From: an uncultured virus (IMG/VR IMGVR_UViG_3300025261_000058)
Taxonomy: Duplodnaviria > Heunggongvirae > Uroviricota > Caudoviricetes
Virus record (IMG/VR): IMGVR_UViG_3300025261_000058
DNA length: 20,000 nt
Reading direction: 5' to 3' (one strand)
Positions 1,478 through 17,686 of the stretch are shown here, one piece after another. A model generated the notes under the pieces. That model saw only the letters and a list, made by a program, of their open reading frames with translations. It searched no databases and was not told the origin of the DNA. The stretch's first letter is position 1. Each line of letters begins with the position of its first letter. A program made the position numbers and the translations under genes.

Positions 1478-1765
1478 TTAAATCACCGCTCGAGCCTGTT
1501 TCGTACCTTTGTTAGTCCCGCCGACCGGGGGCTGACTGTCGTCGCTCGCGGCATACGAGTCGATGCCATCGCCCCACAGATCAGGGCGAAGCTCCGCGAG
1601 AGTGAAACGTGGATCAGCTTCGACAAGGTCTTTGCAGAGTTTGGCGCCAGGCTTACGTCCCGGTCGCGTGCAAAGATAGAGGTACTCGACCGACCTGCCG
1701 ATCTTCGCGGCAAGCGCACGGCGCTCGTCAGGCTTGGTAGTGAGGAACCACGTTCGAAGATCCAT
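1478..1765 (-). CDS. cro: Cro/YdaS-like HTH regulator
   Basis: ALAAKIGRSVEYLY HTH and ELRPDLW motif; divergent from cI. Confidence 0.85.
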   Translation of the reverse strand: MDLRTWFLTTKPDERRALAAKIGRSVEYLYLCTRPGRKPGAKLCKDLVEADPRFTLAELRPDLWGDGIDSYAASDDSQPPVGGTNKGTKQARAVI

Positions 1766-1798
1766 TTAGTCAGCACCGAGAAATCATGTAGTGCTGTC

Positions 1799-1827
1799 AG
1801 CATAGATCAAAACGATGTGCGACTCAA
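1799..1827 (-). promoter_or_regulatory. pR-like sigma70 promoter
   Basis: Minus strand TTGAGT-17 bp-TATGCT upstream of cro; overlapped by an operator at 1803-1821. Confidence 0.7.
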
Positions 1828-1881
1828 GCTTTTTGCTTTGCTAAATCAAATCTTTTTGCACGTTGATCAAAATGATTGATC
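1803..1881. promoter_or_regulatory. OR operator cluster
   Basis: Sites at 1803-1821, 1845-1863 and 1863-1881 resemble the OL motif AGCAAATC-N4-TGATCTA; CAAATCTTTTTGC is identical at 1847 and 3063. Confidence 0.7.
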
Positions 1882-1891
1882 CCGTCATCAT
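1863..1891 (+). promoter_or_regulatory. pRM-like promoter, likely giving a leaderless cI mRNA
   Basis: TTGATC-17 bp-CATCAT, then 7 nt to ATG 1899; no SD sequence. Confidence 0.5.
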
Positions 1892-1898
1892 TCGCACC

Positions 1899-2657
1899 AT
1901 GAAAACGGTGAAAGAGATCCGGTTAGAGAATGCGCGCGCGCTCGCACACGAGGGCCCGGCCGAGTTCGCGCGTCGAATAGACAGCAGCACGCAGCAGGTC
2001 AATCAGTTCATGGGGCCGTCGCCGACTCGCAACATCGGCGACAAACTGGCGCGCCGTATCGAGGGGGCGTTTGGCAAGCCAGAAGGGTGGCTTGACGTCG
2101 AGCACATAACCGGCAGCGCCGATGCATCAATCAGCGGAACAAGGTCAGCCGTACTCGAGAAATTGCTGCCAGAAGGAAGCGGTAACTTAGTCACATGGGA
2201 GACCCCGGAAGATCTCGAGCCCGACGACGACCGGGTGTGGATCGACCGTTATGACTATCGTTACTCAGCGGGGAATGGCGTGATTCAATGGGAAGTACGA
2301 CAAAAAAAGGCGCTGCCGTTTGATATCGGTTTCTTCAAGGCCCTTGGTGTGCGCCCACAGGATTGCAGGTTGGCCCAGGTTCACGGTCGGAGCATGGAGC
2401 CGTATCTGTTCAATAAAGACATGATGATGATTTGCATGGCGAAGAACCGGGTGAAGGACGGTCTGATTTACGCCGTGACGTTTCAGGATGAACCGCTGGT
2501 GAAGCAGATCTTTAAGGAGCCGGAGGGCGCTCTGAGGCTGCATTCCTACAATCCAGAGTTTCCCGACAAGATCATCGCCGCGGACCAGCTGGAAGGGCTT
2601 CAGATCGCCGGAGAGGTTGTGTATCGATCCGGTTCAGGCTTGGCCGGCGGTAATTAA
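1899..2657 (+). CDS. cI: CI-type prophage repressor (HTH + S24 autopeptidase)
   Basis: N-terminal HTH (AEFARRIDSSTQQVNQF..RNIGDKLARRIE); SAGNG cleavage-site motif, GRSMEP serine, VKQI lysine. Confidence 0.95.
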   Translation: MKTVKEIRLENARALAHEGPAEFARRIDSSTQQVNQFMGPSPTRNIGDKLARRIEGAFGKPEGWLDVEHITGSADASISGTRSAVLEKLLPEGSGNLVTWETPEDLEPDDDRVWIDRYDYRYSAGNGVIQWEVRQKKALPFDIGFFKALGVRPQDCRLAQVHGRSMEPYLFNKDMMMICMAKNRVKDGLIYAVTFQDEPLVKQIFKEPEGALRLHSYNPEFPDKIIAADQLEGLQIAGEVVYRSGSGLAGGN

Positions 2658-2730
2658 GACCGCTAAAAACCACAAATACGGGGTAGCCGATGGCGGTCGA
2701 TCTGACTGACCATCTTTGCAGCACTGAACG

Positions 2731-2752
2731 ACCCGGCCTCGGCCGGGTTTTT
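2731..2752 (+). terminator. Intrinsic terminator after cI
   Basis: ACCCGGC-CTCG-GCCGGGT followed by a T-run. Confidence 0.8.
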
Positions 2753-2952
2753 CATTTCCGCCTCTGCTCGAAGCCCTCCCGCCATAACGTAGCACCGACC
2801 GACGTCAACACGGCCAGGTCGTCTCCCCCGAATCTCTCCCAGTTCTGCGCAAGCCAGCCTGCGAAGCCGGCGCACGCGTAGTCAATCGGTACGTCTGCTC
2901 GGCCCTCGACGTTCAATCGCTCGAAAACCGTTATCACGTCGTCTGCGGTCAT
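2752..2952 (-). CDS. Small accessory protein (66 aa) between cI and pL
   Basis: Strong GGAGG RBS; converges on the cI terminator. Confidence 0.7.
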   Translation of the reverse strand: MTADDVITVFERLNVEGRADVPIDYACAGFAGWLAQNWERFGGDDLAVLTSVGATLWREGFEQRRK

Positions 2953-3002
2953 CTCAGCCTCCTAGTACCCACCTTCAGTCTAGACGGCGATCCCTCTATC
3001 TG

Positions 3003-3115
3003 AGCAAATCTTTATGATCTATTGAAGCTATGCAGGCGATAGAAATAATTGTTCGCTCCGAGCAAATCTTTTTGCGACATAGCGCTTGGCAAAGCAAATC
3101 AAATTGATCTATGAT
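3003..3115 (+). promoter_or_regulatory. OL operators and pL-like promoter
   Basis: AGCAAATC-N4-TGATCTA at 3003-3021 and 3093-3111, variant at 3061-3079; TTGGCA(3086)-18 bp-TATGAT(3110). Confidence 0.7.
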
Positions 3116-3161
3116 TCTCTCCATACCGCAACACAACGCAACGACGGAGAAGGGGATTGAA

Positions 3162-3368
3162 ATGAGCCCGAACAACCTTAATGCATTCCGCGCGATTGAC
3201 GAAGTCTTCGACGGAACTTTCATGTTGACGTTTGGCGGCCCGCTCGACGCACCGGAGATGATTCCGAACGGCTCGATGGTCGCGCATGAATGCCACACGA
3301 TCCTCGCCGGTTCAGCACTTCGCTTGGGCGCGCACAACAAACCGTGCATATCGTTCCAGGTGCGCTAA
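3162..3368 (+). CDS. First pL-operon gene, hypothetical (68 aa)
   Basis: AAGGGG RBS before ATG 3162. Confidence 0.65.
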   Translation: MSPNNLNAFRAIDEVFDGTFMLTFGGPLDAPEMIPNGSMVAHECHTILAGSALRLGAHNKPCISFQVR

Positions 3369-3370
3369 CA

Positions 3371-3420
3371 GGTCGAAACCGCTTCGGCGGTCTGAGCGTA
3401 AGGCGCTCACTGACGAGACC
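3371..3420 (+). ncRNA. Type II hammerhead ribozyme; predicted cleavage after C3392
   Basis: GGTC-GAAA-CCGC(TTCG)GCGG-TC-TGAGCG(TAAGG)CGCTCA-CTGACGA-GACC: complete core (CUGANGA, GAAA, GUC) with three perfect stems. Confidence 0.95.
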
Positions 3421-3440
3421 GTGAATTACCCGCAGTAGAA

Positions 3441-4068
3441 GCACCCGCCCCGGCAGAGCCGGATCGCGGTTTGGGTCTTTAAGCGTAATCGGAAAGATAA
3501 ACGGACGTGAAACAGTCGTCCAGACACGTTGGTGTCCCTCCCTTGGCCTGGCTCGGAGGAAGAAGAAAGAGCCTGAAACGAGGACAGATGATCCTCAGAT
3601 GCGAAAGCATCGCCCAGCACACCGTGGCGCGGTAACGGGTGCAAACCATGCGGGATCGGGAGACAGACTGGTCCCGCATGTGTAGCAGTTTTTCTGAGAG
3701 AGCCGCTGAGCTCCCGTCACAGACTGAGTATCCGCCGTTAGTAGCCGCATAGATCCGTGGTCCCCCATAACCCGGTAGCGCCGAACCCGGCTCGAAGGTC
3801 TCCCTGATAGCAACAGCGCTCTCTCAGAAACACTGCACCGAAATTGCACCCAGGTAGATGGACATCAAACTCCATCGGTGTGTGCGACTCGCTGGCGGAC
3901 GAGTGATAAAGACTTCGCCTCCACACCCTTTGAAGCGCGGGCCTGGCAAGCTGTGGATAGGGTCACGAGAACGGTTCTACGCCAACGAACGCCGGATACG
4001 TAACCGGCACGAATTCTGAGTCCCCTAGCCGCGGCCGATTCGCTGAGTCGGCGGCGGTTAGGTGATTC
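3441..4068 (+). ncRNA. Tandem structured RNA domains of unknown family
   Basis: Nested closing stems at 3441/3642, 3647/3680, 3685/3836, 3850/3946, 3991/4008 and 4018/4068, with GU pairs; no credible ORF. Confidence 0.7.
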
Positions 4069-4112
4069 TCACATGATGGCATTCAGTACAACTTATTTCA
4101 TCGGGATTTGAA

Positions 4113-4448
4113 ATGGCGATGACGTCGCTGATGGCGTCGCTAAAGAGATTGGAGGCTGATATGAAGATGATCGAGAAAGCTGTAGCGAGACAGGATGACG
4201 AGGCTGATGACGACATTGAGGAAGCTCGCGAAATCCTCAAGTCATTAATCGAGAACATCCGGGCGGATGGGCATTACTCGATAGAGGCAACTTGTACCTT
4301 TATCCAACAGGCCATGAACTGCCTTCCCATGACCACTGATATCCGGCCGATAAGCATCGATCTTGATTCTCCGCGCAGGGTTGTATTGGTTTTCAGAACC
4401 GCTGCCGATGCCGAAGCGTGGATCGCTAGTCAAGAGATTGGAGGTTGA
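4113..4448 (+). CDS. Hypothetical protein
   Basis: 111-aa ORF; stop adjacent to next RBS/ATG. Confidence 0.65.
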   Translation: MAMTSLMASLKRLEADMKMIEKAVARQDDEADDDIEEAREILKSLIENIRADGHYSIEATCTFIQQAMNCLPMTTDIRPISIDLDSPRRVVLVFRTAADAEAWIASQEIGG

Positions 4449-4449
4449 G

Positions 4450-4947
4450 ATGAAGGGTAATCAATCAGGTTTGGCTCGTGATGAGGCGAGTGTGGACTTG
4501 CCCTTAGAGCCGAAGCGCCACGATTACGTCGCAGATGCTGTGCGATTCGGCGAGTGCGAGCAATGCGCGAAGCGCGACAACCTGCACCCGTTGGGCGGCG
4601 CTATGGTTTGCGGCGGTTGTTCGCAAGCCAGCTATCTCTCTGAATGGCAGGACTATGCAGCGCAACTGCGCGCCCTTCTCGTCAAATCTAGCGCAGCCAC
4701 TGTTAGCGATGCCGCGAGTGCAGAGCCAGCCGTAAATGTTGGAACACTGACCGCGGAAGAACTGCGATTCGTGGAGCTTGTGCGCGATAACCCAGGGTGC
4801 AAGCTGAATAGTGGCGAAGCATGGACCGAAACCGGGCCGCTATGGACACGGCTCGAAGCAATGAGCTTGATCGAATGTGTGGGGTCATATAAATGGCGCA
4901 TCAATATCGCCGAACTATGTGCCCGCGCCGCATCTTCAGGAGGCTGA
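4450..4947 (+). CDS. Modular phage early protein with CxxC..CxxC module
   Basis: GGAGG RBS, ATG 4450; CEQC/CGGC; carries LARDEA and SSAATVSDAAS linkers. Confidence 0.75.
   Translation: MKGNQSGLARDEASVDLPLEPKRHDYVADAVRFGECEQCAKRDNLHPLGGAMVCGGCSQASYLSEWQDYAAQLRALLVKSSAATVSDAASAEPAVNVGTLTAEELRFVELVRDNPGCKLNSGEAWTETGPLWTRLEAMSLIECVGSYKWRINIAELCARAASSGG
4671..4720 (+). repeat. Direct repeat copy 1 (partner 12981-13030)
   Basis: 46/50 identical, including an exact 34-mer TCTAGCGCAGCCACTGTTAGCGATGCCGCGAGTG. Confidence 0.95.
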
Positions 4948-5013
4948 AATGCTCGACCTCATAGCAACTCTCAAGCTGGCTTACCTGGCAGATACGCAGG
5001 GTAGGAGTTAATC

Positions 5014-5241
5014 ATGAACGAAATCAAAGATGGTGGCCCGGCGTTTCCGTGCGACGAGCAGATCAGGGATTCGATGATTTATCAGCCTGAGCCCGGTATG
5101 ACGCTGCGTGACTACATGGCGGCGAAGGCGATGCAAGGAATCTGCGCCCATCCCGATACATGGGGATTGCGCATTCACGAGATCACCGAGCACGCGTACG
5201 ACATTGCCGACGCCATGCTACGCGCCCGAGGCCAATCATGA
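5014..5241 (+). CDS. Conserved phage protein (GGPAFP..GMTLRDY.AAKAMQ type)
   Basis: Recurrent phage motif; AGGAG RBS. Confidence 0.85.
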   Translation: MNEIKDGGPAFPCDEQIRDSMIYQPEPGMTLRDYMAAKAMQGICAHPDTWGLRIHEITEHAYDIADAMLRARGQS

Positions 5242-5426
5242 ATTGGCAACAAGACATGACCATCATCGACGGCAGACTGTACGCGGGCGACAGGTGGCTG
5301 GGCAGTTTCTCATCCCACTCTGCGGCGATGGCTGGCATTCAGATCATGCGCAACGGCAGCAGCGATGTTGAGCTTGCTGAGGATGACCGCGATCTTCTCG
5401 CGGCGATTGATGCGGACGAGGTTTGA
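5238..5426 (+). CDS. Phage hypothetical protein
   Basis: ATGA coupling; MNWQQDMTIIDGRLY... Confidence 0.7.
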   Translation: MNWQQDMTIIDGRLYAGDRWLGSFSSHSAAMAGIQIMRNGSSDVELAEDDRDLLAAIDADEV

Positions 5427-5427
5427 G

Positions 5428-5589
5428 ATGTTCTACACCGACTTCGGATTCCGGGCCTGCGTGCCGAGAGTCTCCAACTACATCCTGACGTTCGCGCGGC
5501 ACTTCGACGTCTATTCCAATTCACGGCTGGTCATGTCTGTGGACTACAGCCAAATCGCGTGGTGCTTACATGAAACCTTTCGACCTTGA
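5428..5589 (+). CDS. Small hypothetical protein
   Basis: GAGG RBS, ATG 5428, fills the operon gap. Confidence 0.5.
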   Translation: MFYTDFGFRACVPRVSNYILTFARHFDVYSNSRLVMSVDYSQIAWCLHETFRP

Positions 5590-5920
5590 AGCCGCCAAGC
5601 GTGGTGAGCCTGTTTGGGTGCGCGCCGACAAGCACAACCCTTGGTATGAGCACGCGTGGTTTGTCGGAGTGACAAAGACCGGGCGTCCGATTATCGAATG
5701 GCCAGATGGCGAAGTTCGATCAGTCAGTAACGCCGGCGAGCGGCTTTGCATGGCACCCCGCAAAAAGACGGTGTATGTGAACGTCTACGACATGCGCCTT
5801 AATTCATACGCGGGCAACAGCGCTGCAACGTTCGATAGCGAAGCTCTGGCACGCGACAACGCTGACCGCAACGGAGTTGGGATGCTAGCGGTTGCTGTGC
5901 CAATTGAGATCGGGGTGTGA
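5570..5920 (+). CDS. Phage protein (MKPFDLEAAK.GEPV type)
   Basis: Recurrent phage N-terminal motif; L.MAPRKKT.YVNVY. Confidence 0.8.
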   Translation: MKPFDLEAAKRGEPVWVRADKHNPWYEHAWFVGVTKTGRPIIEWPDGEVRSVSNAGERLCMAPRKKTVYVNVYDMRLNSYAGNSAATFDSEALARDNADRNGVGMLAVAVPIEIGV

Positions 5921-5921
5921 C

Positions 5922-6455
5922 ATGACCGACAAGACAGACAGCCGGTTAAACACCGATGCCGCTTCAAGGGCGTTCGAAGAATCGAAATACTACTTCACCG
6001 GCGAAAGCCCGGTGCGTCGCGTCGAAGATTGGCGGGTGTGGATCGACGCGTGGAACGCCGCACTATCTGCCAGCCAGCCGAAAGCACTACCGAATCTCGC
6101 CGTCTGGTACGGATCCATGCCCGAGAGCAACGGAAAAACGAACTGGACAGCGATCTTACACGCAGGCGAGATCTGGAAAGGAATCACGATCGACCGCTCA
6201 GAATACCCAGATCGCGTGCGCTATGAAGCCGATCGCATGCGCTGGATGATCGGCGAACTGGAACAACAGCCGTCCATTCTTGACTACGACGCGGACAAGC
6301 ATAGCGGGTATGTGTCGCCTGTCAGCCAGCCTAAAGCGCTGACGGACGAAAAGATCGACGCCGCGATCCTTGAATGGTTTTCATACGAGCGCAATCAGGA
6401 CGATTTTCGAGCCCGCATGCGCGCTGCAATCATTGCTGCCACGGAGGCCAAATGA
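5922..6455 (+). CDS. Modular phage early protein
   Basis: Central VWYGSMPESNGKTNWTA module flanked by a duplicated SQPKAL linker. Confidence 0.8.
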   Translation: MTDKTDSRLNTDAASRAFEESKYYFTGESPVRRVEDWRVWIDAWNAALSASQPKALPNLAVWYGSMPESNGKTNWTAILHAGEIWKGITIDRSEYPDRVRYEADRMRWMIGELEQQPSILDYDADKHSGYVSPVSQPKALTDEKIDAAILEWFSYERNQDDFRARMRAAIIAATEAK

Positions 6456-6571
6456 ACGCCTGTTATTTCGCTCTGGGCGCATGGTGTGGCGCCGTTACGG
6501 TGTGCATCCTGTTCATCCGCGGCGCCAATCCGCCAGAGCGAGTCGATAGACGTATGGAGTGTGAGCAATGA
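6452..6571 (+). CDS. Small hydrophobic protein
   Basis: GGAGG RBS, ATGA coupling at both ends. Confidence 0.55.
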   Translation: MNACYFALGAWCGAVTVCILFIRGANPPERVDRRMECEQ

Positions 6572-6702
6572 AACCCGCAATCGACGACTGGATCGAATTC
6601 ACCCGCGCATCGATTGACGAGCAGTTGGCTGAGATTGCGGCGAAGGATGAGGCCGCGTGGCAGGTCTTCCGAGCCAAGCTGTTTGAAGCGCTGGATCAAT
6701 AA
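6568..6702 (+). CDS. Small hypothetical protein (44 aa)
   Basis: Manual translation MKPAIDDWIEFTRAS...; coupled start. Confidence 0.6.
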   Translation: MKPAIDDWIEFTRASIDEQLAEIAAKDEAAWQVFRAKLFEALDQ

Positions 6703-6714
6703 CGGAGAGTTGGA

Positions 6715-6954
6715 ATGAGCCAATTTAACGAAGAACAACTGAAAGAACTCGAAGTCGTCTTCGGCCTGAAGCGAGAAGAAAGTTTGCCGGTGCGCGACGG
6801 GCGCGTGACACGAGATTCGATGGTCTGGTGGCGCGGATCGAAGGGACCCGAGCAAGTGCGGGCTGATAGCGGAACGCACTGGCACAACATCAGTTCCTTC
6901 CCCGATGTCTATCAGTTGAAGCAACCGGTGTATCGCGTCGAGTACTTCGATTGA
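6715..6954 (+). CDS. Phage hypothetical protein
   Basis: GGAGAG RBS, 79 aa. Confidence 0.75.
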   Translation: MSQFNEEQLKELEVVFGLKREESLPVRDGRVTRDSMVWWRGSKGPEQVRADSGTHWHNISSFPDVYQLKQPVYRVEYFD

Positions 6955-6963
6955 TTCCCCGAA

Positions 6964-7156
6964 GCCAGCGCGGCACAAACAGCGCCTAGCACCGGGTGGG
7001 ATGCCCGGGCCTTGAGTGATGGTGATTGGCCTCTAAGGGTTGTACCGGCGAGCCAATGTCCCCTTAAGAGGACTGCCAGTCGCTATCGCTCAGGGCAAAA
7101 GCGGATTCTGCGCGGAAGGCAGTACGAGTAAGCGCAGTGCAGCGAGTAGCTCTGGC
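6964..7156 (+). ncRNA. Structured intergenic RNA
   Basis: 22-bp uninterrupted stem 7009-7030/7075-7096 with 5 GU pairs; hairpins 6992-7008 and 7108-7137; closing stem 6964/7156. Confidence 0.7.
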
Positions 7157-7174
7157 AAATTATCAGGAGTCCAT

Positions 7175-7360
7175 ATGGGACAGCACGCAAATCAACGCGC
7201 TTGGGCCGAATTCGAGCGCAGGCAGCGCAAGGCGCAAGACGACTACTTCGAGTCCGAGCCGCCGATCACAGACGACGAGCTGGCCGAGATTGCAAGCGAC
7301 AAGCACTTCGAGCGGATCGACTACCCGCGCACGAATCGGCAGTGGGGAGGATGGCAATGA
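7175..7360 (+). CDS. Phage hypothetical protein
   Basis: AGGAG RBS, ATG 7175. Confidence 0.7.
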   Translation: MGQHANQRAWAEFERRQRKAQDDYFESEPPITDDELAEIASDKHFERIDYPRTNRQWGGWQ

Positions 7361-7737
7361 GCGAGATCAAGCATACGCCGGGGCCGTGGAAGCTCATGCC
7401 CCGCGAAGTGTTGGAAGACGACAGCGTTTATTCCACGCACATCGTCGGCGGCCCCCGCGAGGTTCAAGTCTGCCTCCTAGAGTCATTCGAATCCGCGAAA
7501 CGAGCACATGACAACCCGGAAATGAAATCCGCAGTGTTCGAAGCTAACTGCCGCCTGATAGCCGCCGCGCCTGACCTCTACGAAGCGCTCGAAAGTATCC
7601 GCCGATACGGGCTGGACACCCTCTCAGGGCGAGCAGACGGCGGAGAAGATGACCGTCAGTGGCAGCGCGAAGCAGTCAACGAAATGACCAAGCGTGCTCG
7701 AATCGCAATCGAAAAAGCCACCGGGAGCCAGTCATGA
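7357..7737 (+). CDS. Phage protein (HTPGPW..AN.RLIAAAPDL type)
   Basis: Recurrent phage motifs; coupled start. Confidence 0.85.
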   Translation: MSEIKHTPGPWKLMPREVLEDDSVYSTHIVGGPREVQVCLLESFESAKRAHDNPEMKSAVFEANCRLIAAAPDLYEALESIRRYGLDTLSGRADGGEDDRQWQREAVNEMTKRARIAIEKATGSQS

Positions 7738-7907
7738 GCGCCACATACGAGATACACGACGGCTGCACGACATGCATATCTGATGCCGGTCGCGACCGCT
7801 TAGCAGAAGAGCAACGCCAGCGCCAAGCCGAGATCCTGATGTGGACCACGGCCGGCTCTATCGGCGCGATTGCTGCACTGGTGCTTAAACAACTACTCGG
7901 AGGTTAA
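7734..7907 (+). CDS. Small protein with C-terminal TM segment
   Basis: Coupled ATGA; hydrophobic tail. Confidence 0.6.
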   Translation: MSATYEIHDGCTTCISDAGRDRLAEEQRQRQAEILMWTTAGSIGAIAALVLKQLLGG

Positions 7908-7909
7908 CC

Positions 7910-8101
7910 ATGTTTTCGAGAGACATCCAGCACTACCGCTATCGCACGGCACGCACGATGACTGAGGCGTTTGGTCCGAACAGCAAACTGCACGTCGAGC
8001 GCGAGAGTGACGTGAAGGCGTGGATCTGGGCGATTGGCTGCGGCGTGGCTATCGGCTGCGTCTGGTGGATCTGCGTGGCGCTTCGGGCGGGGGCGGCATG
8101 A
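7910..8101 (+). CDS. Small membrane protein
   Basis: GGAGG RBS; R.ARTM.EAFGP motif followed by a TM helix. Confidence 0.75.
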   Translation: MFSRDIQHYRYRTARTMTEAFGPNSKLHVERESDVKAWIWAIGCGVAIGCVWWICVALRAGAA

Positions 8102-8292
8102 CCCAGCACTACGACAACGCCATCCACATGATGGAAGTGCAGGGCGGCTCTTTCGTCCAGTCATTGGCCCACTGCTACCTGATGGCCGATCCAGTCAACA
8201 AAACAAAGCTTCGCGACACGTTCGCCGGTTACTTCGAAAACTACGAGCACCGGTTTGATCTGTGGAAGCAACAACAGAGGGAAGCAGCATGA
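8098..8292 (+). CDS. Phage protein (GGSFV.SLA....ADP.N type)
   Basis: Coupled start and stop; recurrent phage motif. Confidence 0.75.
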   Translation: MTQHYDNAIHMMEVQGGSFVQSLAHCYLMADPVNKTKLRDTFAGYFENYEHRFDLWKQQQREAA

Positions 8293-9341
8293 GCACAGCA
8301 CTTTCAGTACGCCAGGAATTCGGCGCACAAGAGACGACCAACGCACTGGTCGAAACCGCCTCGACGGCCATTGCGGCCAAGGCGAAGGCAATGGTCGAGG
8401 CCCGCTACGTGATGGCGATGCGCCAGCCGCGCAATTGGGATCAGGTGCGGCAGGACTTGATGAGCGAGTGCAAGCGGCCATCCTTCGCGCACAACAAGAG
8501 CGCGTACTACCGCAAGCCGATCGGCCAAGGTGTAGAGGGTCTGGGGATTCGCTTCGTGGAAGTCGCGTTGCGTTGCATGAAGAACGTGCTGGTCGAGACG
8601 TCCATGACATTCGAGGACGACGCTAAGGAGATTCATTGCGTCAGCGTAACGGACCTGGAATCGAACCTGACCTATCCGCTGGATGTGCGGGTGTCGAAGA
8701 CGGTCGAGCGCTCGAAGCCGGCCGACGATGGTTCGTATCTCTCGGTCCGAAAGAATAGCTACGGCAAGATGGTCTACACCGTTCCGGCCAACGATGACGA
8801 CTTGCTCAACAAGCGCGGCGCCCTGATTTCCAAAGCTGTACGGACGCTTGGTCTGCGGATTATTCCGGGCGATCTACAGGACGAAGCAGAGGAAATCATC
8901 AAGGCGGTCCGAATGAACGAAGCCGCCCGCGATCCGGGAGCGGAACGGAAGCGCATCGCCGATGCATTCGCTGAAATCGGCGTGAAAGTCGAAGACCTAA
9001 CGAAGTATCTTGGCCACGCGCTTGATACGTGCTCGCCCGCAGAACTGGTAGATCTGCGCGGCATCTATGGCGCGATCAAGGACGGCGAGGCCACCTGGAA
9101 GCAGGTTGTCGAAAACAAGGCCGAGCAGGGCGGGGAGGGCAGCGAAAGCGGCTCAACGAGCGCCAAGGTGATTCCGGTCTGCACTGCCGATGACTTCGAG
9201 AAAAAGTCACCTGAATGGCGAAAGCTGATCGTCGAGAAGAAAAAGACGCCCGCCGAGTTGGTCAAGATGATCGAGACGAAGACCAAACTCAGCGAAGAAC
9301 AGAAACTGACGCTGGACTCATGGAGCCACGAGAATGACTGA
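8289..9341 (+). CDS. Putative recombination/single-strand annealing protein
   Basis: 350-aa ORF overlapping the exonuclease start; AYYRKPIG.GVEGLGIRF motif; function inferred from synteny only. Confidence 0.6.
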   Translation: MSTALSVRQEFGAQETTNALVETASTAIAAKAKAMVEARYVMAMRQPRNWDQVRQDLMSECKRPSFAHNKSAYYRKPIGQGVEGLGIRFVEVALRCMKNVLVETSMTFEDDAKEIHCVSVTDLESNLTYPLDVRVSKTVERSKPADDGSYLSVRKNSYGKMVYTVPANDDDLLNKRGALISKAVRTLGLRIIPGDLQDEAEEIIKAVRMNEAARDPGAERKRIADAFAEIGVKVEDLTKYLGHALDTCSPAELVDLRGIYGAIKDGEATWKQVVENKAEQGGEGSESGSTSAKVIPVCTADDFEKKSPEWRKLIVEKKKTPAELVKMIETKTKLSEEQKLTLDSWSHEND

Positions 9342-10941
9342 CCGCATAACTCACGACCTGATTCAAGGCTCGGATGAATGGGCACAGTTCCGCCTGACGA
9401 AGTTCGGCGCCAGCGAGGCCGCTGCCATGCTCGGAATCTCGACGAAGGCCAAGCGCACCGAACTGCTTCACATGAAGCATACCGGCAATCCCAAGGAGTT
9501 CAGCGAGTGGGTTCAGAAGAACATCCTGGACTACGGTCACGAAGTAGAAGCGCTGGCCCGGCCCATCATCGAAGAACTGATCGGGCAGGACTTGTACCCA
9601 GTGACGCGTTCGCTGGGCGTGCTTTCAGCATCGTGTGACGGCCTGACGCTCGACGACGAGATTGCATTCGAGCATAAGCAGTGGAATGCGACTCTAGCCG
9701 AATCGGTGCGCAATAAGGTGCTGCCGGAAGAGTATCAGCCGCAGTGCCAGCAAATCATGCTGGTGGCCGGCGCGCAGAAGGTCATCTTCGTATGCTCAGA
9801 CGGCACGCGAGACAACATGGAATACATGGAGGTCTACCCGGATCAGGCTTGGTTCGAGCGGATCATCGACGGCTGGGTGCAGTTTGAAAAAGACCTGGCC
9901 GCCTACGTGCCGCAAGTCATCGAAGAAAAGCCGATCGGCCACACGCCTGAAACGCTTCCCGCGCTGCACATCGAACTCAGCGGTGTTGTCAAGCATAGCA
10001 ACCTCCGCGATTTCAAGGCTCACGCACTGGCTGTCTTCGCAGGTATCAACCGCGAACTGACGACCGACCAGCATTTCGCCGACGCCGAGAAGACCGTCAA
10101 GTGGTGCGAAGACGTCGAATCACGACTCAAAGCGGCGAAGGAGCACGCGCTGAGCCAGACGCAGAGCATCGACGAATTGTTCAAGACCATCGACGACATC
10201 GGTGCCGAGGCTCGCCGCGTCCGGTTGGATCTCGACAAACTGGTGACCAAGCGCAAGACCGAAGTCAAGGATTCGATCATCGCCGGCGGCCGCAAGAAAT
10301 TTGCTGATCACTGCGCGGCACTCGCGGCAGATCTGGCCTTGGGCGACGTTCGGCTTGAAGTGGCGGCGCCCGATTTTGTCGGCGCAGCGAAGAACAAACG
10401 GACGATGGCAAGCCTGCACGATGCGATCGACACGGCGCTGTCCAACGGCAAGATTGCCGCCGATGCCGTCGCCCGCGATCTGCGTGCGAAGCTCGACTGG
10501 TACAAGCCGCACGGCGAAGCTCATGGCTTCCTATTCCGCGACCTGCAATCACTGATCCAGAAGCCCGCTGAGGACTTCCAATTGGCCGTCACCACGCGGA
10601 TCGAACAGCACAAGCAGGCAGAAGCGGAGAAGGTAAAGGCGGCGCCGCCGCCCACACCCGCAGTCGTGGCGCCAGCGCCGATCGCCACGAAGCCAGTTCA
10701 GGTCGCAGCGCCTTGGATTGGCACTACGCCGACCGGCGCTCCGACACTGCGTCTTGGCCAGATTAACGAACGACTGGCACCGATCGCTTTGACAGCCGAA
10801 GGCTTAGTGGCTCTCGGATTCAAGCACGCAGCCACCGACAAGGCTGCCAAGTTGTACCACGAGGAAGTTTTCCCTCAGATTTGTGCAGCGCTGATCGAGC
10901 ACATCGATGCGGCGGCTCGCGGGCTTGCTCACGCAGCCTAA
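9334..10941 (+). CDS. YqaJ/lambda-exonuclease family protein with long helical C-terminus
   Basis: QGSDEW..R...GASE, YGHEVE, SASCDG, FEHK, YQPQCQQ motifs. Confidence 0.92.
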   Translation: MTDRITHDLIQGSDEWAQFRLTKFGASEAAAMLGISTKAKRTELLHMKHTGNPKEFSEWVQKNILDYGHEVEALARPIIEELIGQDLYPVTRSLGVLSASCDGLTLDDEIAFEHKQWNATLAESVRNKVLPEEYQPQCQQIMLVAGAQKVIFVCSDGTRDNMEYMEVYPDQAWFERIIDGWVQFEKDLAAYVPQVIEEKPIGHTPETLPALHIELSGVVKHSNLRDFKAHALAVFAGINRELTTDQHFADAEKTVKWCEDVESRLKAAKEHALSQTQSIDELFKTIDDIGAEARRVRLDLDKLVTKRKTEVKDSIIAGGRKKFADHCAALAADLALGDVRLEVAAPDFVGAAKNKRTMASLHDAIDTALSNGKIAADAVARDLRAKLDWYKPHGEAHGFLFRDLQSLIQKPAEDFQLAVTTRIEQHKQAEAEKVKAAPPPTPAVVAPAPIATKPVQVAAPWIGTTPTGAPTLRLGQINERLAPIALTAEGLVALGFKHAATDKAAKLYHEEVFPQICAALIEHIDAAARGLAHAA

Positions 10942-10948
10942 ACCTCCA

Positions 10949-11088
10949 CGCGTTCCCCACCCCAAGCGATGTAGCCCACTCGGGTATTGATCTCGCCAAA
11001 CAGCGGGTGAGGGGACGCGCCTATACCAGTCCCGCAGACAGCACAGTCTGCGGCGTGTTTGGGGCGGCCGGTCTGGCGCCTCCTTTTT
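10949..11088 (+). promoter_or_regulatory. Structured leader and terminator-like hairpin before the methyltransferase
   Basis: Stems 10949-10962/11005-11019, 11032-11039/11046-11053 and 11061-11082, followed by T5. Confidence 0.5.
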
Positions 11089-11103
11089 AGAGAATCAGGG
11101 GCT

Positions 11104-11832
11104 ATGAATGAGTTGGCTCTTTTCGCAGGCGCTGGTGGCGGAATACTCGGCGGCCACCTTCTTGGATGGCAAACCATCGTCGCAGTTGAACGTGATGCCC
11201 ACGCAGCACAAATTCTGGCACAGAGGCAAAACGATGGAGCCATCCGACCATTCCCAATTTGGTCTGACGTCACGAGTTTTGACGGAAAGCCATGGCGAGG
11301 CATTGTTGACGTCGTATCGGGCGGCTTTCCATGCCAGGACATTAGCGTTGCCGGCACCAAGTTGGGCCTCGAAGGCGAGCGCAGTGGGCTCTGGTCGGAG
11401 TTCTTCCGGATTGTGGGCGAAGTTCGACCCGGCTTCGTGTTCATTGAGAACAGCCCAGCACTCGTTACTCGAGGACTCGACCGCGTGCTCGCCGATCTTG
11501 CCTCCATCGGGTTTGATGCTCGCTGGTCGTGTCTATCAGCGGCCCAGCTTGGCGCCTGTCACGAACGTAACCGCGCCTGGATCGTTGCCCACTCCTCTGA
11601 AGTCATGGGGCCGGCGCGGGCCGGGCTTATCGAACAACCTCGACAACTTGCGATGCAGCCTTGGAGTTACGAAGGAGTGTCTAGCGATAGTGGACGCCGT
11701 TGGGTGGAGATGGCCCGCAAGTTTCGTCGAATGGATGATGGGCTGGCCTTTGCAGTGGAGCGCACTGAAGCCATTGGAAATGGGCAGGTTCCAATCGTGG
11801 CAGCAACAGCATTCGACCTTCTCACGCGCTGA
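11104..11832 (+). CDS. DNA (cytosine-5) methyltransferase, alpha-type chain
   Basis: LFAGAGG (I), GGFPCQDIS (IV), ENS (VI), HERNRAW (VIII), IGNGQV (X); no motif IX in this frame. Confidence 0.93.
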   Translation: MNELALFAGAGGGILGGHLLGWQTIVAVERDAHAAQILAQRQNDGAIRPFPIWSDVTSFDGKPWRGIVDVVSGGFPCQDISVAGTKLGLEGERSGLWSEFFRIVGEVRPGFVFIENSPALVTRGLDRVLADLASIGFDARWSCLSAAQLGACHERNRAWIVAHSSEVMGPARAGLIEQPRQLAMQPWSYEGVSSDSGRRWVEMARKFRRMDDGLAFAVERTEAIGNGQVPIVAATAFDLLTR

Positions 11833-11842
11833 AGCGGCGTGA
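11108..11842 (+). CDS. Overlapping-frame methyltransferase beta-type chain (motif IX); true start uncertain
   Basis: 244-codon open +1 frame ending PASFVEWMMGWPLQW, resembling motif IX E..LMGFP..W. Confidence 0.7.
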   Translation: MSWLFSQALVAEYSAATFLDGKPSSQLNVMPTQHKFWHRGKTMEPSDHSQFGLTSRVLTESHGEALLTSYRAAFHARTLALPAPSWASKASAVGSGRSSSGLWAKFDPASCSLRTAQHSLLEDSTACSPILPPSGLMLAGRVYQRPSLAPVTNVTAPGSLPTPLKSWGRRGPGLSNNLDNLRCSLGVTKECLAIVDAVGWRWPASFVEWMMGWPLQWSALKPLEMGRFQSWQQQHSTFSRAEAA

Positions 11843-11862
11843 CCTAACCGAGCTAAATCATA

Positions 11863-12279
11863 ATGCAGACAAAGAATTGCCGCATCTCCCTGGAATGCAA
11901 GCCTATCGAAGCATTTACTCGGAACAAGGCTAGCTCTGTTGGATTCACGCGCGTATGCAAATCTTGCACGAATGCGAAAAGTCGAGCTTACGCGAAGTCA
12001 AGACCTGAGAAAGTCAAAGAGAAGCGGTCGCAGAAGAAAGCATTGAATGCTGCTTTGAATCTCAGTTACCGGCAGCGATATCCCGAACGAATGATAGCGA
12101 ACACCATTTGCAAGCGAGCTGTTGCAGAAGGGATAGTGAAAAGGCACCCATGTTGGGTATGTGGCGAAACAAAAGTCGAAGCTCACCATGCGGATTACAG
12201 CCAACCTCTCGATGTCGTATGGCTGTGCCGCCTTCATCATCGCCAAGCGCATGCACTAGCGCGGGAATTGGAGAAATAA
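11863..12279 (+). CDS. Zn-binding HNH-like phage protein
   Basis: CKSC, CWVCG, EAHHADYSQPLDVVWLCRLHH. Confidence 0.75.
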   Translation: MQTKNCRISLECKPIEAFTRNKASSVGFTRVCKSCTNAKSRAYAKSRPEKVKEKRSQKKALNAALNLSYRQRYPERMIANTICKRAVAEGIVKRHPCWVCGETKVEAHHADYSQPLDVVWLCRLHHRQAHALARELEK

Positions 12280-12280
12280 A

Positions 12281-12883
12281 TTGACGACAAACGACAGCAA
12301 AGACCAGGGACGCGAGGCACTGAGCGAGGCAGAGATCCGCAAGAGCATGACGTCGGACCATATCCAGCTTGAACGCAAACTCACCTGCGAGGCGATCGAT
12401 GGTGCCATTGCATTTGGTTACCAAAACACGAACCCTCCGCCGAGCGATGATCATTGGCTTGCGCCTTACTGGAAGACCGGCCGCAAACAGGCTGAGTTAG
12501 AAGCCGCCCTCGCTACCAGTGCATCCGCTCTCGCTCGCGATGAGGCGACGGGTAATCGCGAGTTCCACGAAGCCGCAGTAAAACTAGTTCGCGACATGAT
12601 GGACGCTTGGTCAGACGGCCGGCGTTTGGCGGAATGCCCGGCCATCGGATGCCGCATAAACGCGCTGCTTACCGCGGCCACTGGTGGAGATGCCGCGAGT
12701 GTGACAAGCGTTGCGGACTGGGAGATTTCTTCTATCGCCAATGAACTGTGGCAATTGGCTGATCAATGTGGCTACGAACAGTTCCGTGACGCTGTCTCGA
12801 CACATCTAAAGAAGTCGTACAGCGATGGGTGGTCTGACCATCAGAACGGCGCAGCATCGGTGACTTACGGGGACCAAAAATGA
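12281..12883 (+). CDS. Modular phage early protein
   Basis: GGAG RBS with TTG start; LARDEA and DAASV linkers. Confidence 0.75.
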   Translation: MTTNDSKDQGREALSEAEIRKSMTSDHIQLERKLTCEAIDGAIAFGYQNTNPPPSDDHWLAPYWKTGRKQAELEAALATSASALARDEATGNREFHEAAVKLVRDMMDAWSDGRRLAECPAIGCRINALLTAATGGDAASVTSVADWEISSIANELWQLADQCGYEQFRDAVSTHLKKSYSDGWSDHQNGAASVTYGDQK

Positions 12884-13545
12884 CGCACGATGAAATCATG
12901 GCAACAGCAAGCCATTACTCGGAAGTGGATGCGCAAGGCTACGTGCGGTTTTGCGAAGATGATCTGATCAACTTCGCAGACGCCCTTCTCGCCCCCTCTA
13001 GCGCAGCCACTGTTAGCGATGCCGCGAGTGTGCTGAGCAATGAGCAGATCATCGAGCGCTGCAAAGCGGCTGGCATTAAGTGGATACCGCCCGAGTTGCC
13101 TGACGACTGCGATTATGAAATGGGCTTCCCCGGCTCGTTCGACATGGTAACCATGGACGAGATGCGCGCGCTTCTCACCGCTGCCAGCGATCAGGCGTCG
13201 GGGCAGGCGGTGCCAAAAGGATGGAAGTTGGTCCCGATTGTGCCAACACGCGGGATGCCGGTAGCGGGTGGATTGGTCCCGCGCGGCGAACACCTTTTTC
13301 ATCATCCTGGCGGTGGCGACGAGCGTATCGAAGTGATTGGCTTCGGGAAAGCCTGCGAAGTTTGGGCCGCCATGCTTGCCGCCGCCCCCTCTCCCGCCGT
13401 GCGCGAAGCCGGGGACGGCGTGACGCTGACGGATAGCGACATTCTCGTACTGTGGGACCAAACCATGGCTCCGGACGACGATGAGAACCGTGAGCACAAA
13501 CTGATCGTACGCTTCGCCCGCGCCCTTCTTAAGGAGGCCAAGTGA
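12880..13545 (+). CDS. Modular phage early protein (VPKGWKLVP..WAAMLAAAP module)
   Basis: Coupled ATGA; shared linkers; module typical of lambdoid exo-xis region genes. Confidence 0.8.
   Translation: MTHDEIMATASHYSEVDAQGYVRFCEDDLINFADALLAPSSAATVSDAASVLSNEQIIERCKAAGIKWIPPELPDDCDYEMGFPGSFDMVTMDEMRALLTAASDQASGQAVPKGWKLVPIVPTRGMPVAGGLVPRGEHLFHHPGGGDERIEVIGFGKACEVWAAMLAAAPSPAVREAGDGVTLTDSDILVLWDQTMAPDDDENREHKLIVRFARALLKEAK
12981..13030 (+). repeat. Direct repeat copy 2 (partner 4671-4720)
   Basis: Exact 34-mer at 12997-13030. Confidence 0.95.
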
Positions 13546-14318
13546 TGGACGCGCACCTCGCAGCATATTTCAGGAATCACCTAGCGTACGACGAGGTGAC
13601 CGGTATAGCCACATGGCTTACAGGACGACGCGCCGGCGACGCTGTGGACGGCAGGACGCACAAGGGATACGTCTCTATCCACATCGCAGGTCATAACCGG
13701 CCGTTGCATCGAGTGATCTGGACAATGGTGACTGGTGAATCCCCGTCTTTGCAGATCGATCATATCGATGGCGTGCGAGACAACAATCGAATGGATAACC
13801 TGAGACTGGCGAACAGCATCCAGAACAACCGGAATAAGTTGGCGTTCAGGTCCAACACCACGACCGGCCTGAAAGGCGTTACCAAACGGATGGGTCGCTA
13901 TTCCGCTCGAATCCATATCGGCCCGGAACTTCGACACCTCGGTACGTTTGCGACGATGGATGAAGCGGCGCATGCCTATAACAAGGCGGCGATTGCTGAG
14001 TTCGGCGAATTCGCAGTTCTCAACCCAATTGGCCTTGTCCAAGAAATAACCGGTCATGACCTGAAAATTGAGGTCGTGGGCGCAGACCAAGGAGCAATCA
14101 TGTCGCGAGGGCATCACGAACTGCAGGTCTTCGCCTCGGAAGCTCAGCAACATGGCTTTGCTTTTTCGATGGATTCCCTTGAGCACGTATGGTTTCGCCC
14201 GATTCCGAACAAATACGATCCGAACAAGACATGTCGCTTTGTGCCTGCCGTGCCGGAATCGAGAGGATCATTCCCAGCCACTTATGTTCGCCTTCTACGC
14301 GAAGCGGGGAGCCGGTGA
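13542..14318 (+). CDS. HNH-AP2 homing-type endonuclease with extra C-terminal domain
   Basis: HRVIW..IDHIDGVRDNNRMDNLR (HNH); GLKGV..YSARI..HLGTF...EAAHAYNKAA..FGEFA (AP2). Confidence 0.9.
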   Translation: MMDAHLAAYFRNHLAYDEVTGIATWLTGRRAGDAVDGRTHKGYVSIHIAGHNRPLHRVIWTMVTGESPSLQIDHIDGVRDNNRMDNLRLANSIQNNRNKLAFRSNTTTGLKGVTKRMGRYSARIHIGPELRHLGTFATMDEAAHAYNKAAIAEFGEFAVLNPIGLVQEITGHDLKIEVVGADQGAIMSRGHHELQVFASEAQQHGFAFSMDSLEHVWFRPIPNKYDPNKTCRFVPAVPESRGSFPATYVRLLREAGSR

Positions 14319-14319
14319 T

Positions 14320-14460
14320 ATGAGCCTTATTTCATGCATTTACTTCCTGTGCGGCGCATTGACCGTTGGCTGCATCTGGGTGTGTGTCGAAACAGCCAGA
14401 ATTCAAAAACGTATTCGGAGGCTCCGATTCACCCTATCCGCCCAGCAAGCAAAGGAATAG
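14320..14460 (+). CDS. Small TM protein
   Basis: GGGGAG RBS; hydrophobic N-terminus. Confidence 0.5.
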   Translation: MSLISCIYFLCGALTVGCIWVCVETARIQKRIRRLRFTLSAQQAKE

Positions 14461-14463
14461 AAC

Positions 14464-14985
14464 ATGAGTGACACGATGCTTTTTGGCATTCTCCGTATGC
14501 CGCTAGATATGGTTCTCTCCGACCCATTATCGACTGCGCAGTTTCATAGCTGCGCTCAAGGCGCCGCCGCTCTCATAGAGCAGCAAGCCGCCCGCATCGC
14601 CGAATTGGAAGAAGCCATCCGAAAGCAAGCCAATGCTGCCCGGTGCCTCGCCGACGCAACTATCCGTGACGCGTCGATCCGTCAAGAGTTGGCAGAGAAG
14701 GCGCGCGCCGAGTCGTCACCAGAAGTGCTCGCGTCTGAGCGACAGGCTAACGCGATGCTGACAGAAGAAAACGAACGGCTGACGGCGCGCATCGCCGCCC
14801 TCGAATCCGCTTCGAAGGATGCGATACGGCGGGAGGCGATCGAGCAGGCTGCGAAGCACATGGATTCACGCGCCGCTGAATTCAGGGGTTGCGGAAACCA
14901 CACGGCAGACACGATGGCGCGCGTTTTCGAAGCCGAGGCTGACGCTATCCGCGCCCTGTCTCAAAAGGTAGGAGACCAGCAATGA
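14464..14985 (+). CDS. Coiled-coil phage protein (Ead/Ea22-like)
   Basis: AAGGA RBS; repeated ARIAELE/ARIAALE heptads. Confidence 0.75.
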   Translation: MSDTMLFGILRMPLDMVLSDPLSTAQFHSCAQGAAALIEQQAARIAELEEAIRKQANAARCLADATIRDASIRQELAEKARAESSPEVLASERQANAMLTEENERLTARIAALESASKDAIRREAIEQAAKHMDSRAAEFRGCGNHTADTMARVFEAEADAIRALSQKVGDQQ

Positions 14986-14995
14986 GCACTGTGTT

Positions 14996-15250
14996 TCAGT
15001 TAAGCCGCGCTGGATTGTCTTCAACGAATTGTCGAGCGGCAGCAAGCGCTTCTTCGGACGTATCGAAATTAAGGCCCTTTGGGTTTGGCACCTTAACCCA
15101 CGCGTCTTCCTCGCGTTCATTGTTCAAGCGAACATGGGCGACGAGTTTCTTTTCGCATGTGCGCTCGAATCCCACGACGCCGCCGGAGATCACTTCGCGA
15201 AGCCGAAGTTCGAAACGTCGGTCCGACACTGAGAATTCAACACTAGGCAT
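14996..15250 (-). CDS. Counter-oriented accessory gene (moron-like, 84 aa)
   Basis: GGAGAG RBS before ATG 15250; protein-like composition; opposes the operon. Confidence 0.6.
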   Translation of the reverse strand: MPSVEFSVSDRRFELRLREVISGGVVGFERTCEKKLVAHVRLNNEREEDAWVKVPNPKGLNFDTSEEALAAARQFVEDNPARLN

Positions 15251-15404
15251 GCGGCTCTCCAAGTTTGCTTTTCGAGGATCGTAACATGGCCGCTGCACAA
15301 CTAGTTCCCGGTATTAGTGAGGGTAGTCGCATGACCCTCTACACAGTCCGCGCCCAAGCGCCGGACGACATCATCGCCGCATCTTGCAAGCGCGAGACGG
15401 ACCA

Positions 15405-15605
15405 ATGAACCACCTCAACAGCCGCCGAGCATTCGAAGAATCGCACCGGTCGTTCTCGCTGGCAAAGCAGCCCACGACGTATCAGGTGCATGACCTTTGC
15501 AGCAAGTTCGCACAGATGGTCGCCGATGATCGACGGTACAAGATATCTGTGGGGCTGTCTGCGGCGGGGATTAATGTTGTTCGTGAGCCGAGGACAGGGA
15601 AATGA
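15405..15605 (+). CDS. Phage hypothetical protein
   Basis: ATG 15405; stop coupled to next gene. Confidence 0.6.
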   Translation: MNHLNSRRAFEESHRSFSLAKQPTTYQVHDLCSKFAQMVADDRRYKISVGLSAAGINVVREPRTGK

Positions 15606-15757
15606 CCAGTCATGACGAAACCGCGGTGAACCTGAGACTGGTTGCCGCCATGGCCGCGAAGATGGCAGGCAAGGTCGAGCAGCGCGCACTCTGGCCCGGC
15701 GACCTTGAGGAAGCAATTGCGCAGATGCAGAAATGGCTAGCGGAGATTGTGGGATGA
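15602..15757 (+). CDS. Small hypothetical protein (51 aa)
   Basis: Manual translation; ATGA coupling at both ends. Confidence 0.6.
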   Translation: MTSHDETAVNLRLVAAMAAKMAGKVEQRALWPGDLEEAIAQMQKWLAEIVG

Positions 15758-15900
15758 CTGAACTGAACGATTTGGAAGCAGTGAAAGCTGAGCTTCAATG
15801 GTGCATCGCCGAGGGCACTTATGGCCCGCGCACGGGCGCAGCGTTGCGCTGGGCATTGGAGATGATTGAGCAGATGGAAGCGGAGAAGCAGGCGGCATGA
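15754..15900 (+). CDS. Small hypothetical protein (48 aa)
   Basis: Manual translation; ATGA coupling. Confidence 0.6.
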   Translation: MTELNDLEAVKAELQWCIAEGTYGPRTGAALRWALEMIEQMEAEKQAA

Positions 15901-15994
15901 CCGAAGCGCTGGAAAAGATTCTGGCCGTTACCGCGGCCTGGTGGAAGATTGAATATCTGGTCGCTTAGGCGGCCAGTTTTGTTTTGGAGGTCAA

Positions 15995-16285
15995 ATGGAG
16001 CGACGAGAGGTTGTCGACCTGTTCGGCGAGACGGTCGTCATCGAGGTAAGCGAGGCCAAAGGAGTTCGCAAGCCGACGCGTCCGAACGGGTACGCGGCGC
16101 CGCCCGGAAGCGGGCCAACAGGCGAGACATGCAAAAACTGTGAGCATGCGGTCCGAGTCAACAACGGAACGGCAGGCACCTATCGCAAATGTGCGCTCAT
16201 GCGGGCGAATTGGACGGGCGGGCCAGGGAGTGACATTCTCTTTCGGTCGCCCGCTTGCAGACATTGGGAGAGCGAGAAAAAATGA
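15995..16285 (+). CDS. Cys-containing phage protein
   Basis: GGAGG RBS; TCKNCEH..KC..AC. Confidence 0.8.
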   Translation: MERREVVDLFGETVVIEVSEAKGVRKPTRPNGYAAPPGSGPTGETCKNCEHAVRVNNGTAGTYRKCALMRANWTGGPGSDILFRSPACRHWESEKK

Positions 16286-16497
16286 ACGAATCGATGTTTC
16301 TGTCCGAGGATGAGCTCGTGGAGATGACCGGCAAGGTTAGGCACCCGGCACAGGTTCGCGTTCTGAATCGCCTTGGCATCGATCACAAGGTGCGGCCGGA
16401 CGGCTCGATAGTCGTGCTCCGGGCCGTCTCGCAACGCGTCTTGGGCGATCGCACGCCGAAGGCTACTATCAAGACGTGGGAACCCGTCTTCAACTAA
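16282..16497 (+). CDS. xis: Excisionase-like protein (DUF4224 type)
   Basis: FLSEDELVEMTG....AQ..L...GI....RPDGS.VV; immediately upstream of the integrase. Confidence 0.85.
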   Translation: MNESMFLSEDELVEMTGKVRHPAQVRVLNRLGIDHKVRPDGSIVVLRAVSQRVLGDRTPKATIKTWEPVFN

Positions 16498-16499
16498 TC

Positions 16500-17552: not shown

Positions 17553-17686
17553 GCAAAAAGTGGGTTATTCGGATAGGGTATTGCACGACAGTTAAAGGCT
17601 TAGCGGGGAGTAGTTCAAAAATCTATAACCCACGTCGATTGTCTGTCATCGTTATGTAGCAAGCGAATCCGATCAATGGGCGTACC

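Follow-up and report, generated by a model that had tools for sequence, protein, structure and literature searches.

What does a lambdoid phage place at the head of its early-left transcript when no N gene can be recognised there? We addressed this question in a 20,000-nucleotide stretch of DNA (the window), part of a temperate phage record of the Burkholderiaceae type (host kind: soil bacterium). Besides a cI-like repressor gene, whose nearest relatives in genomes belong to Paraburkholderia, Trinickia and further Burkholderiaceae, it encodes a cro-like gene, a recombination exonuclease, a methyltransferase and an integrase. A preliminary description of this DNA had put the region of interest under pL/OL control, and the parts of such a control region were all located: the cI-like and cro-like genes, three operator-like repeats and, overlapping these, a sigma70-type promoter that would serve as pL (Table 1). 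Repeats resembling OL also occur at 1803-1880, ahead of cro. Between the putative pL and the RNA array lies a 68-aa ORF, for which searches of PHROGs, Pfam and Atlas returned no match, and the 111-aa ORF that follows the array matched no family above the cut-off.

Table 1. Features of the early-left region of the window, and positions of module Z in related loci
Feature	Position	Strand	Basis and remarks
cI-like repressor gene	1890-2657	+	PHROGs repressor families, E=3e-25; Peptidase_S24
Three operator-like repeats (OL)	3003-3022, 3061-3080, 3093-3112	n/a	similar repeats at 1803-1880, ahead of cro
pL-like sigma70 promoter	3086-3115	+	-35 at 3086, -10 ends at 3115; 10/12 consensus matches; putative function
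68-aa ORF, between pL and array	3162-3368	+	optional insert; absent in L004
Type II hammerhead ribozyme	3371-3420	+	sequence and fold; predicted cut after C3392
Hairpin in boxB position	3445-3469	+	inner stem-loop 3450-3462; sequence differs between phages
boxA-like motif	3474-3484	+	core TCTTTAA, as in Paraburkholderia rrn leader/spacer boxA; position kept in relatives
Module W	3487-3642	+	5' hairpins, H-type pseudoknot 3537-3573, two hairpins, terminal hairpin 3617-3642
Hairpin hp2	3647-3680	+	between first module and long-stem cassettes; z=-6.9
Module M3	3685-3836	+	25-bp outer stem; payload 3710-3811, its closure a 4-bp helix flanked by two CUCCC motifs
Module M4	3846-4008	+	~165 nt, multi-helix; H-type pseudoknot 3894-3897 with 3916-3919; terminal hairpin 3991-4008
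Hairpin M6	4018-4068	+	22 pairs, no U tail; z=-7.3; downstream identity point with L002
Conserved short motif	4083-4095	+	ahead of first downstream gene; alignment A5
First downstream ORF, 111 aa	4113-4448	+	N-terminal half acidic, not N-like
Module Z in L020	6226-6332		
Module Z in L023	6051-6162		
Module Z in L304	1333-1447	-	
Module Z in L472 and L480	973-1087		

The stretch 3371-4110 is a real, non-coding and conserved RNA region, with domain boundaries corrected from those first drawn. It holds the hammerhead, the hairpin with the boxA-like motif, and four modules: W, M3, M4 and the hairpin M6. The only plus-strand ORF of at least 50 aa inside it (3858-4019, 53 aa) is not conserved; 12 of 16 homologues have a stop no later than codon 19, and the spacing is variable in each of the three frames, in agreement with the earlier statement that there is no plausible plus-strand gene. 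The minus strand contains several ORFs of 62-84 aa. Compared with dinucleotide shuffles, 3371-4068 folded with z=-5.8 on the plus strand and z=-1.7 on the minus strand, and in a comparison using 15 shuffles per block it reached z=-4.45, with 13 other 698-nt blocks of the window ranging from -3.11 to +2.16. A coding block at 13913-14610 also beats its shuffles (z=-3.1). Folding better than shuffled sequence held for the whole stretch, for hp2 and M6 and for 3681-3840 (z=-5.5), but the signal was weak for 3441-3642 (z=-1.9), 3850-3946 (z=-1.1) and the hammerhead (z=-1.6). Three long hairpins account for most of the signal, and the 150-nt sliding windows that begin at 3401, 3701, 3801 and 3901 showed nothing unusual in their folding energy. 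With these weak pieces and unremarkable windows, folding energy supports only part of the tiling; 3441-3642 and 3850-3946 are both pseudoknotted, which the energy model cannot see.

Known families did not account for the region. A scan of Rfam had been suggested at the outset, and none of the window's W, M3, M4 and M6 matched any Rfam 15 covariance model at the gathering score; nor did related loci (14, 12 and 18). ARAGORN called no tRNA gene in the window and, over 45 loci, found tRNAs only in L459 and L464, both outside pL-boxA leaders. A search of plasmids with 3420-3850 returned no match, and a DNA search of a genome sample gave partial matches in 6 of 396 genomes (2 candidates scored per genome).

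The array opens with a type II hammerhead whose core is complete (CUGANGA at 3410-3416, GAAA at 3375-3378, NUH triplet at 3390-3392); in the predicted fold, loops cap stems I and III and stem II is open. We took the type II consensus and the loop I pseudoknot as criteria from PMC3088659. Loop I may pair with 3426-3429 in the 3' tail, a 4-bp pairing also possible in L007 and L160 and partial or absent in L312, L092 and L028. Type II hammerheads between prophage genes are already known, with cleavage demonstrated, from that paper (Perreault et al. 2011); ours shares their core, open stem II and position between phage genes but precedes a non-coding array and not a gene. It scored below the Rfam gathering threshold. 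The only hit, Hammerhead_3 at 19.6 bits, corresponds to a longer type III fold reaching 3518, which we treated as chance.

Is the ribozyme what defines the locus, as the label "ribozyme-led" in the preliminary description implied? Among 124 distinct hammerhead pattern matches in viral contigs (loci L028-L149), 99 keep all three stems; 80 of these have a stop codon no more than 4 nt away, and at least 2 have a boxA within 130 nt (some of the loci are short), one of them being this phage. Across 34 leaders including the window, 8 contain a hammerhead and 4 another element in the same slot, and in L004, with a cI 80% identical and the same OL/pL, pL runs directly to boxA. We therefore regard the hammerhead as optional punctuation tied to the upstream ORF, and not as the defining trait. 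Two side observations concern this slot. In L065 (1501-2990), four type II hammerheads each sit just past a small gene's stop codon, a clustering that PMC3088659 describes. The second is a conserved, possibly pseudoknotted element of ~60 nt that occupies the hammerhead slot in L470-L483 (about 901-947), L005, L156, L171 and L393; in 13 of 14 loci it immediately follows a stop codon, and it has no Rfam match in the loci scanned, and is a candidate alternative self-cleaving or processing RNA.

Downstream of the hammerhead stand a hairpin in the boxB position and the boxA-like motif. The region had been said to be present in place of nut, which is wrong because a boxA is present. The domain first drawn at 3441-3642 resolves into this hairpin-boxA pair (3445-3484) and module W (3487-3642), since the helix closing 3441 on 3642 is not kept in homologues. 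The motif alone is not significant (9 one-mismatch matches in the window against 3.7 expected), and beyond its core it diverges from the host boxA. Its position is kept in 33 of 35 leader loci, a set that was partly selected by boxA and in which three counted loci have a variant motif; when loci were collected by way of M4, which lies 334-973 nt away from it, 13 of 15 had the motif, as did 10 of 14 collected by way of the alternative element in the hammerhead slot. A similar hairpin occurs in 9 of 33 other leaders.

In lambda nut, boxA comes first and boxB follows. Our locus resembles lambda N/nutL in its slot after pL, its boxA and its hairpin, but here the hairpin precedes boxA, no N was found, and a search from cro to the cII-like gene and through the rest of G560 and G561 showed no second nut-like site; an exact second copy of the hairpin-boxA pair is likewise absent from these two records. 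A search for N36 in G001, in G560 and in G561, which is a complete relative, gave no match; the control came above the cut-off in 0 of 14 genomes, so this search had no positive control. No convincing Arg-rich small gene was found next to the site, and the ORFs flanking the arrays are unrelated between leaders. The earlier remark that there is no Arg-rich N-like gene therefore stands for N36, PHROGs, Pfam and the flanking ORFs, with a distant N possible. HK022 put offers a second comparison: there, too, a structured RNA occupies the pL leader and no N is evident in the phage. According to PMC9378689, put consists of two stems, takes up ~70 nt where the transcript begins, and binds directly to RNA polymerase. 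Its read-through is factor-independent and works via the beta-prime zinc-binding domain. Our locus differs in having a boxA and no sequence likeness to putL (best local match 10 nt, E=0.055), and put homology was rejected when no two-stem, ~70-nt putL-like RNA was found directly after pL.

Module W follows boxA at once and starts about 365 nt after pL. Homologues of W and M3 were picked by patterns designed on the window and aligned by hand, and we read the helices of W, M3 and part of M4 sequence by sequence because MAFFT misaligned them. A W pattern without pairing constraints gave 86 distinct matches, of which 5 (the window, L153, L156, L171 and L213) pair 15/15 over three helices, the other 81 reaching 11 or fewer. 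By hand comparison, 7 members have in common the 5' motif and hairpins, an H-type pseudoknot whose loop is A-rich, a hairpin of the GNRA type and the terminal hairpin. In the six members tabulated (L482 was left out), pseudoknot helix S1 occurs in 3 sequence types and S2 in 6, all pairing 5/5. In every case observed, no more than one cassette separated W from boxA, and the W pattern was absent from 201 sampled genomes. Two broader groupings failed: W and M4 are not one family, as the M4 model does not detect W, and a pseudoknot common to terminal GUAA-loop hairpins was unsupported (8 of 17, 6.6 expected). After W comes hp2; one of three hp2-type motifs occurs in 22 of 34 leaders.

M3 is a long-stem cassette whose 25-bp stem encloses 96 nt. 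Its pattern had 23 matches, with flanking duplexes of -23.8 kcal/mol or stronger in 9 and -15.4 or weaker in 14. The outer stems vary in sequence, yet each pairs with its own partner at -23.8 to -37.9 kcal/mol; the stems of the 10 members compared share 41-60% identity with the 5' arm of the window, and the interiors about 50%. The closure of the payload is pseudo-symmetric, with a CUCCC on each strand 5' of the 4-bp helix, and it is invariant in an interior that is ~50% identical. A scan with the CTCCC pattern returned mostly chance matches, and no target complementary to the M3 motifs was evident in the phage record. Cassettes of the M3 type also occur without a nearby boxA-like motif in L456, L459, L464 and L466; in L459 and L464 they adjoin a true tRNA-Met, and in L391 one follows a gp2.5-like gene. 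A second M3 location as a late, post-Q cluster was not established: the ORF upstream in L456 falls in a family with no known function, and the one in L459 had no match.

M4 is represented by 16 distinct sequences, including cultured Burkholderia phages in which the region is unannotated. In its well-aligned helices, 96.8% of cells are paired and 25 cells show two-sided change, a value reached in 0 of 500 shuffles; counted by pairs, such change is unexceptional (65 of 500 shuffles). This control ignores relatedness, and the alignment (A3) comprises two main lineages. The pseudoknot is fully Watson-Crick (4/4) in 16 of 16 sequences with 5 sequence types, and 0 of 20 cross-pairings were complete; two further helices, read per sequence, behave likewise. 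A second pseudoknot candidate, of kissing loops, has one-sided changes only and is 87.5% paired. The M4 covariance model found nothing in 151 sampled genomes, a search with no positive control. M6 shows two-sided change at 5 of 22 pairs in 6 sequences. End-to-end domains had been described for the array, and the modular folds persist in our analysis, but the pieces 3850-3946 and 3991-4008 form one module and 3441-3642 is two elements.

Both covariation and module swapping, which the preliminary description had proposed looking for, were found, as compensatory changes in W, M4 and the M3 stem and as the array of L002. The compensatory changes in the W and M4 pseudoknot helices across lineages indicate purifying selection on the fold, judged from sequence comparison. 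L002, from G561, is 98.8% identical over window positions 1572-3469, carries other modules in its array, and matches again at 4014-4061; since it is near-identical upstream, differs in the array and rejoins at about 4018, modules swap. Other leaders combine these and additional modules, with order and length differing from one to the next; the arrays span several hundred to over 1000 nt, and the order boxA, first module, hp2 is kept across leaders. Module Z, of ~110 nt, occupies the promoter-proximal slot of boxA-less leaders (5 of 5 loci, about two lineages), with no boxA within -150/+600 nt of it in L020, L023, L304, L472 or L480; it is a candidate Nus-independent antiterminator. Further cassettes are tRNA-like (L002 6930-7040, L007 8980-9170, L010 5485-5595, L151 3900-3995), with D-arm and T-arm look-alikes and replaced anticodon arms, and are not called by ARAGORN. 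An ORF that resembles a homing-endonuclease gene by eye lies inside or directly after the array in L477 and L481.

What, then, would such an array do? The stretch is untranslated in homologues, folds as independent modules that show compensatory change and are exchanged, and has a boxA-like motif ahead of it. The reading we favour, at about even confidence, is an rRNA-operon-style precursor at the head of the early-left transcript, from which discrete trans-acting RNAs are released as in dicBF/DicF. On induction pL would fire, and the hammerhead would cut just after the 68-aa ORF and separate its mRNA from the non-coding precursor. BoxA would recruit host NusB/NusE (with NusA, NusG and SuhB), no phage N protein being needed, and the Nus complex would shield the 0.6-kb untranslated stretch from Rho and aid its folding. 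RNase III may cut the long stems of M3 and M6 and, with other nucleases, free W, the M3 payload and M4. The freed RNAs would have their targets in trans, in the host or in rival phages; W and M4, with their pseudoknots, may be protein-binding decoys, and the CUCCC motifs of M3 may work through base-pairing or dimer binding. The RNase III assignment rests on stem length, as there is no reliable RNase III site consensus according to PMC5371410. Recruitment of NusB/E by boxA and shielding of untranslated RNA from Rho are described in PMC12360218, and PMC4807359 argues that boxA/Nus at rRNA have a main role other than antitermination, which may be folding.

A compatible alternative, which we consider unlikely but worth weighing, makes hairpin, boxA, W and hp2 a cis-acting, N-free antiterminator for the 13-kb early-left operon, an RNA doing the job of lambda N-boxB or HK022 put with the distal cassettes as passengers. 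The missing N36 match and Arg-rich gene, the unrelated flanking ORFs and the conserved order from boxA to hp2 all fit it, and Z and boxA look like two alternative devices for one slot; since five boxA-less loci carry a different module there, RNA-based antitermination stays a candidate. On the other hand, near-identical phages carry unrelated folds in place of the first module, 4100-17700 contains only two plus-strand intrinsic terminators, both weak, and N proteins diverge fast and could be missed, above all by an N36 search without a positive control. Nor is there likeness to putL, which on the evidence of PMC9378689 is ~70 nt and promoter-proximal, with W lying far from pL.

More improbable is that all elements act purely in cis, with hammerhead, RNase III stems and pseudoknots governing where the early-left mRNA ends, how long it lasts and how it is translated, as RNase III sites do in the lambda N leader, and with no trans product. 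The hammerheads close to stop codons (80 of 99, at least 2 of 99 followed by boxA) would suit such a role, as would M6 and the conserved motif directly ahead of the first gene; left unexplained are the ~100-nt payloads with conserved inner motifs inside stems, the 150-165-nt pseudoknotted modules with many invariant unpaired bases, and the sheer array lengths. We give little credence to a decaying tRNA/ncRNA cluster or selfish RNA modules of no current benefit to the phage: cassettes with tRNA-like D-/T-arm motifs do occur in 9 of 34 leaders, ARAGORN calls no gene in the early-leader loci, and the modules are patchy in sampled genomes (M4 model 0/151, W pattern 0/201), but the pseudoknots show compensatory change across lineages and the window's own modules are not tRNA-like. 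That the stretch encodes small proteins is scarcely credible, for the 53-aa ORF and the minus-strand ORFs are set against the early stops and variable spacing in homologues and a folding signal specific to the plus strand. A bolder extension, more doubtful as a whole than the precursor reading, is that temperate phages of Burkholderiaceae possess a dedicated, hot-swappable RNA accessory locus, in which an N-free RNA antiterminator (boxA with a W-like module, or Z) drives the array and the new ncRNA classes in it are released as decoys or inhibitors of host defence or competing phages.

Returning to the precursor reading, its ingredients have relatives elsewhere. Like dicBF/DicF of E. coli prophage Qin, the array sits in a repressor-controlled, pL-like operon, but DicF is one 53-nt base-pairing sRNA with a known target, and here we see several larger pseudoknotted modules; Rfam gave no DicF match in the window. 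With rrn leader/spacer antitermination (boxB-boxA; NusA/B/E/G, SuhB, S4) it shares the hairpin, the boxA and untranslated RNA enclosed by long stems, but this is a phage locus whose payloads are neither rRNA nor tRNA, and Nus binding is proposed only. PreS of lambda, Pas sRNAs, GOLLD and ROOL are also phage-borne ncRNAs, some of them early-left or near tRNAs; they are single RNAs and not swappable arrays, and they had no Rfam match here. The literature searched contains no description of such an array, and fragments may sit unnamed in the supplements of PMC10690425 or PMC5737381. The first of these reports 10,006 viral candidate RNAs from IMG/VR, and its supplement file 4 held no matches. Precedents exist for each ingredient; neither their combination nor the modules W, M3 and M4 seem to have been described before.

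These results point to three or more RNA families in a single phage (W, M3 and M4) that have covariation support and appear undescribed, and to a larger pool in its relatives, arranged like an rRNA operon and exchanged like accessory genes. The locus raises the question of how lambdoid phages of Betaproteobacteria transcribe a long early operon without a recognisable N, and whether structured RNAs carry phage accessory functions usually assigned to small proteins. Annotation pipelines leave the region blank in cultured phages. Elsewhere in the window, a 66-aa ORF on the minus strand (2752-2952), between the cI terminator and OL, matches phrog_21839 (unknown function) and recurs in several relatives, and a sequence like the 3' half of a tRNA (17664-17726, minus strand), right after the integrase gene, is probably the attachment site.
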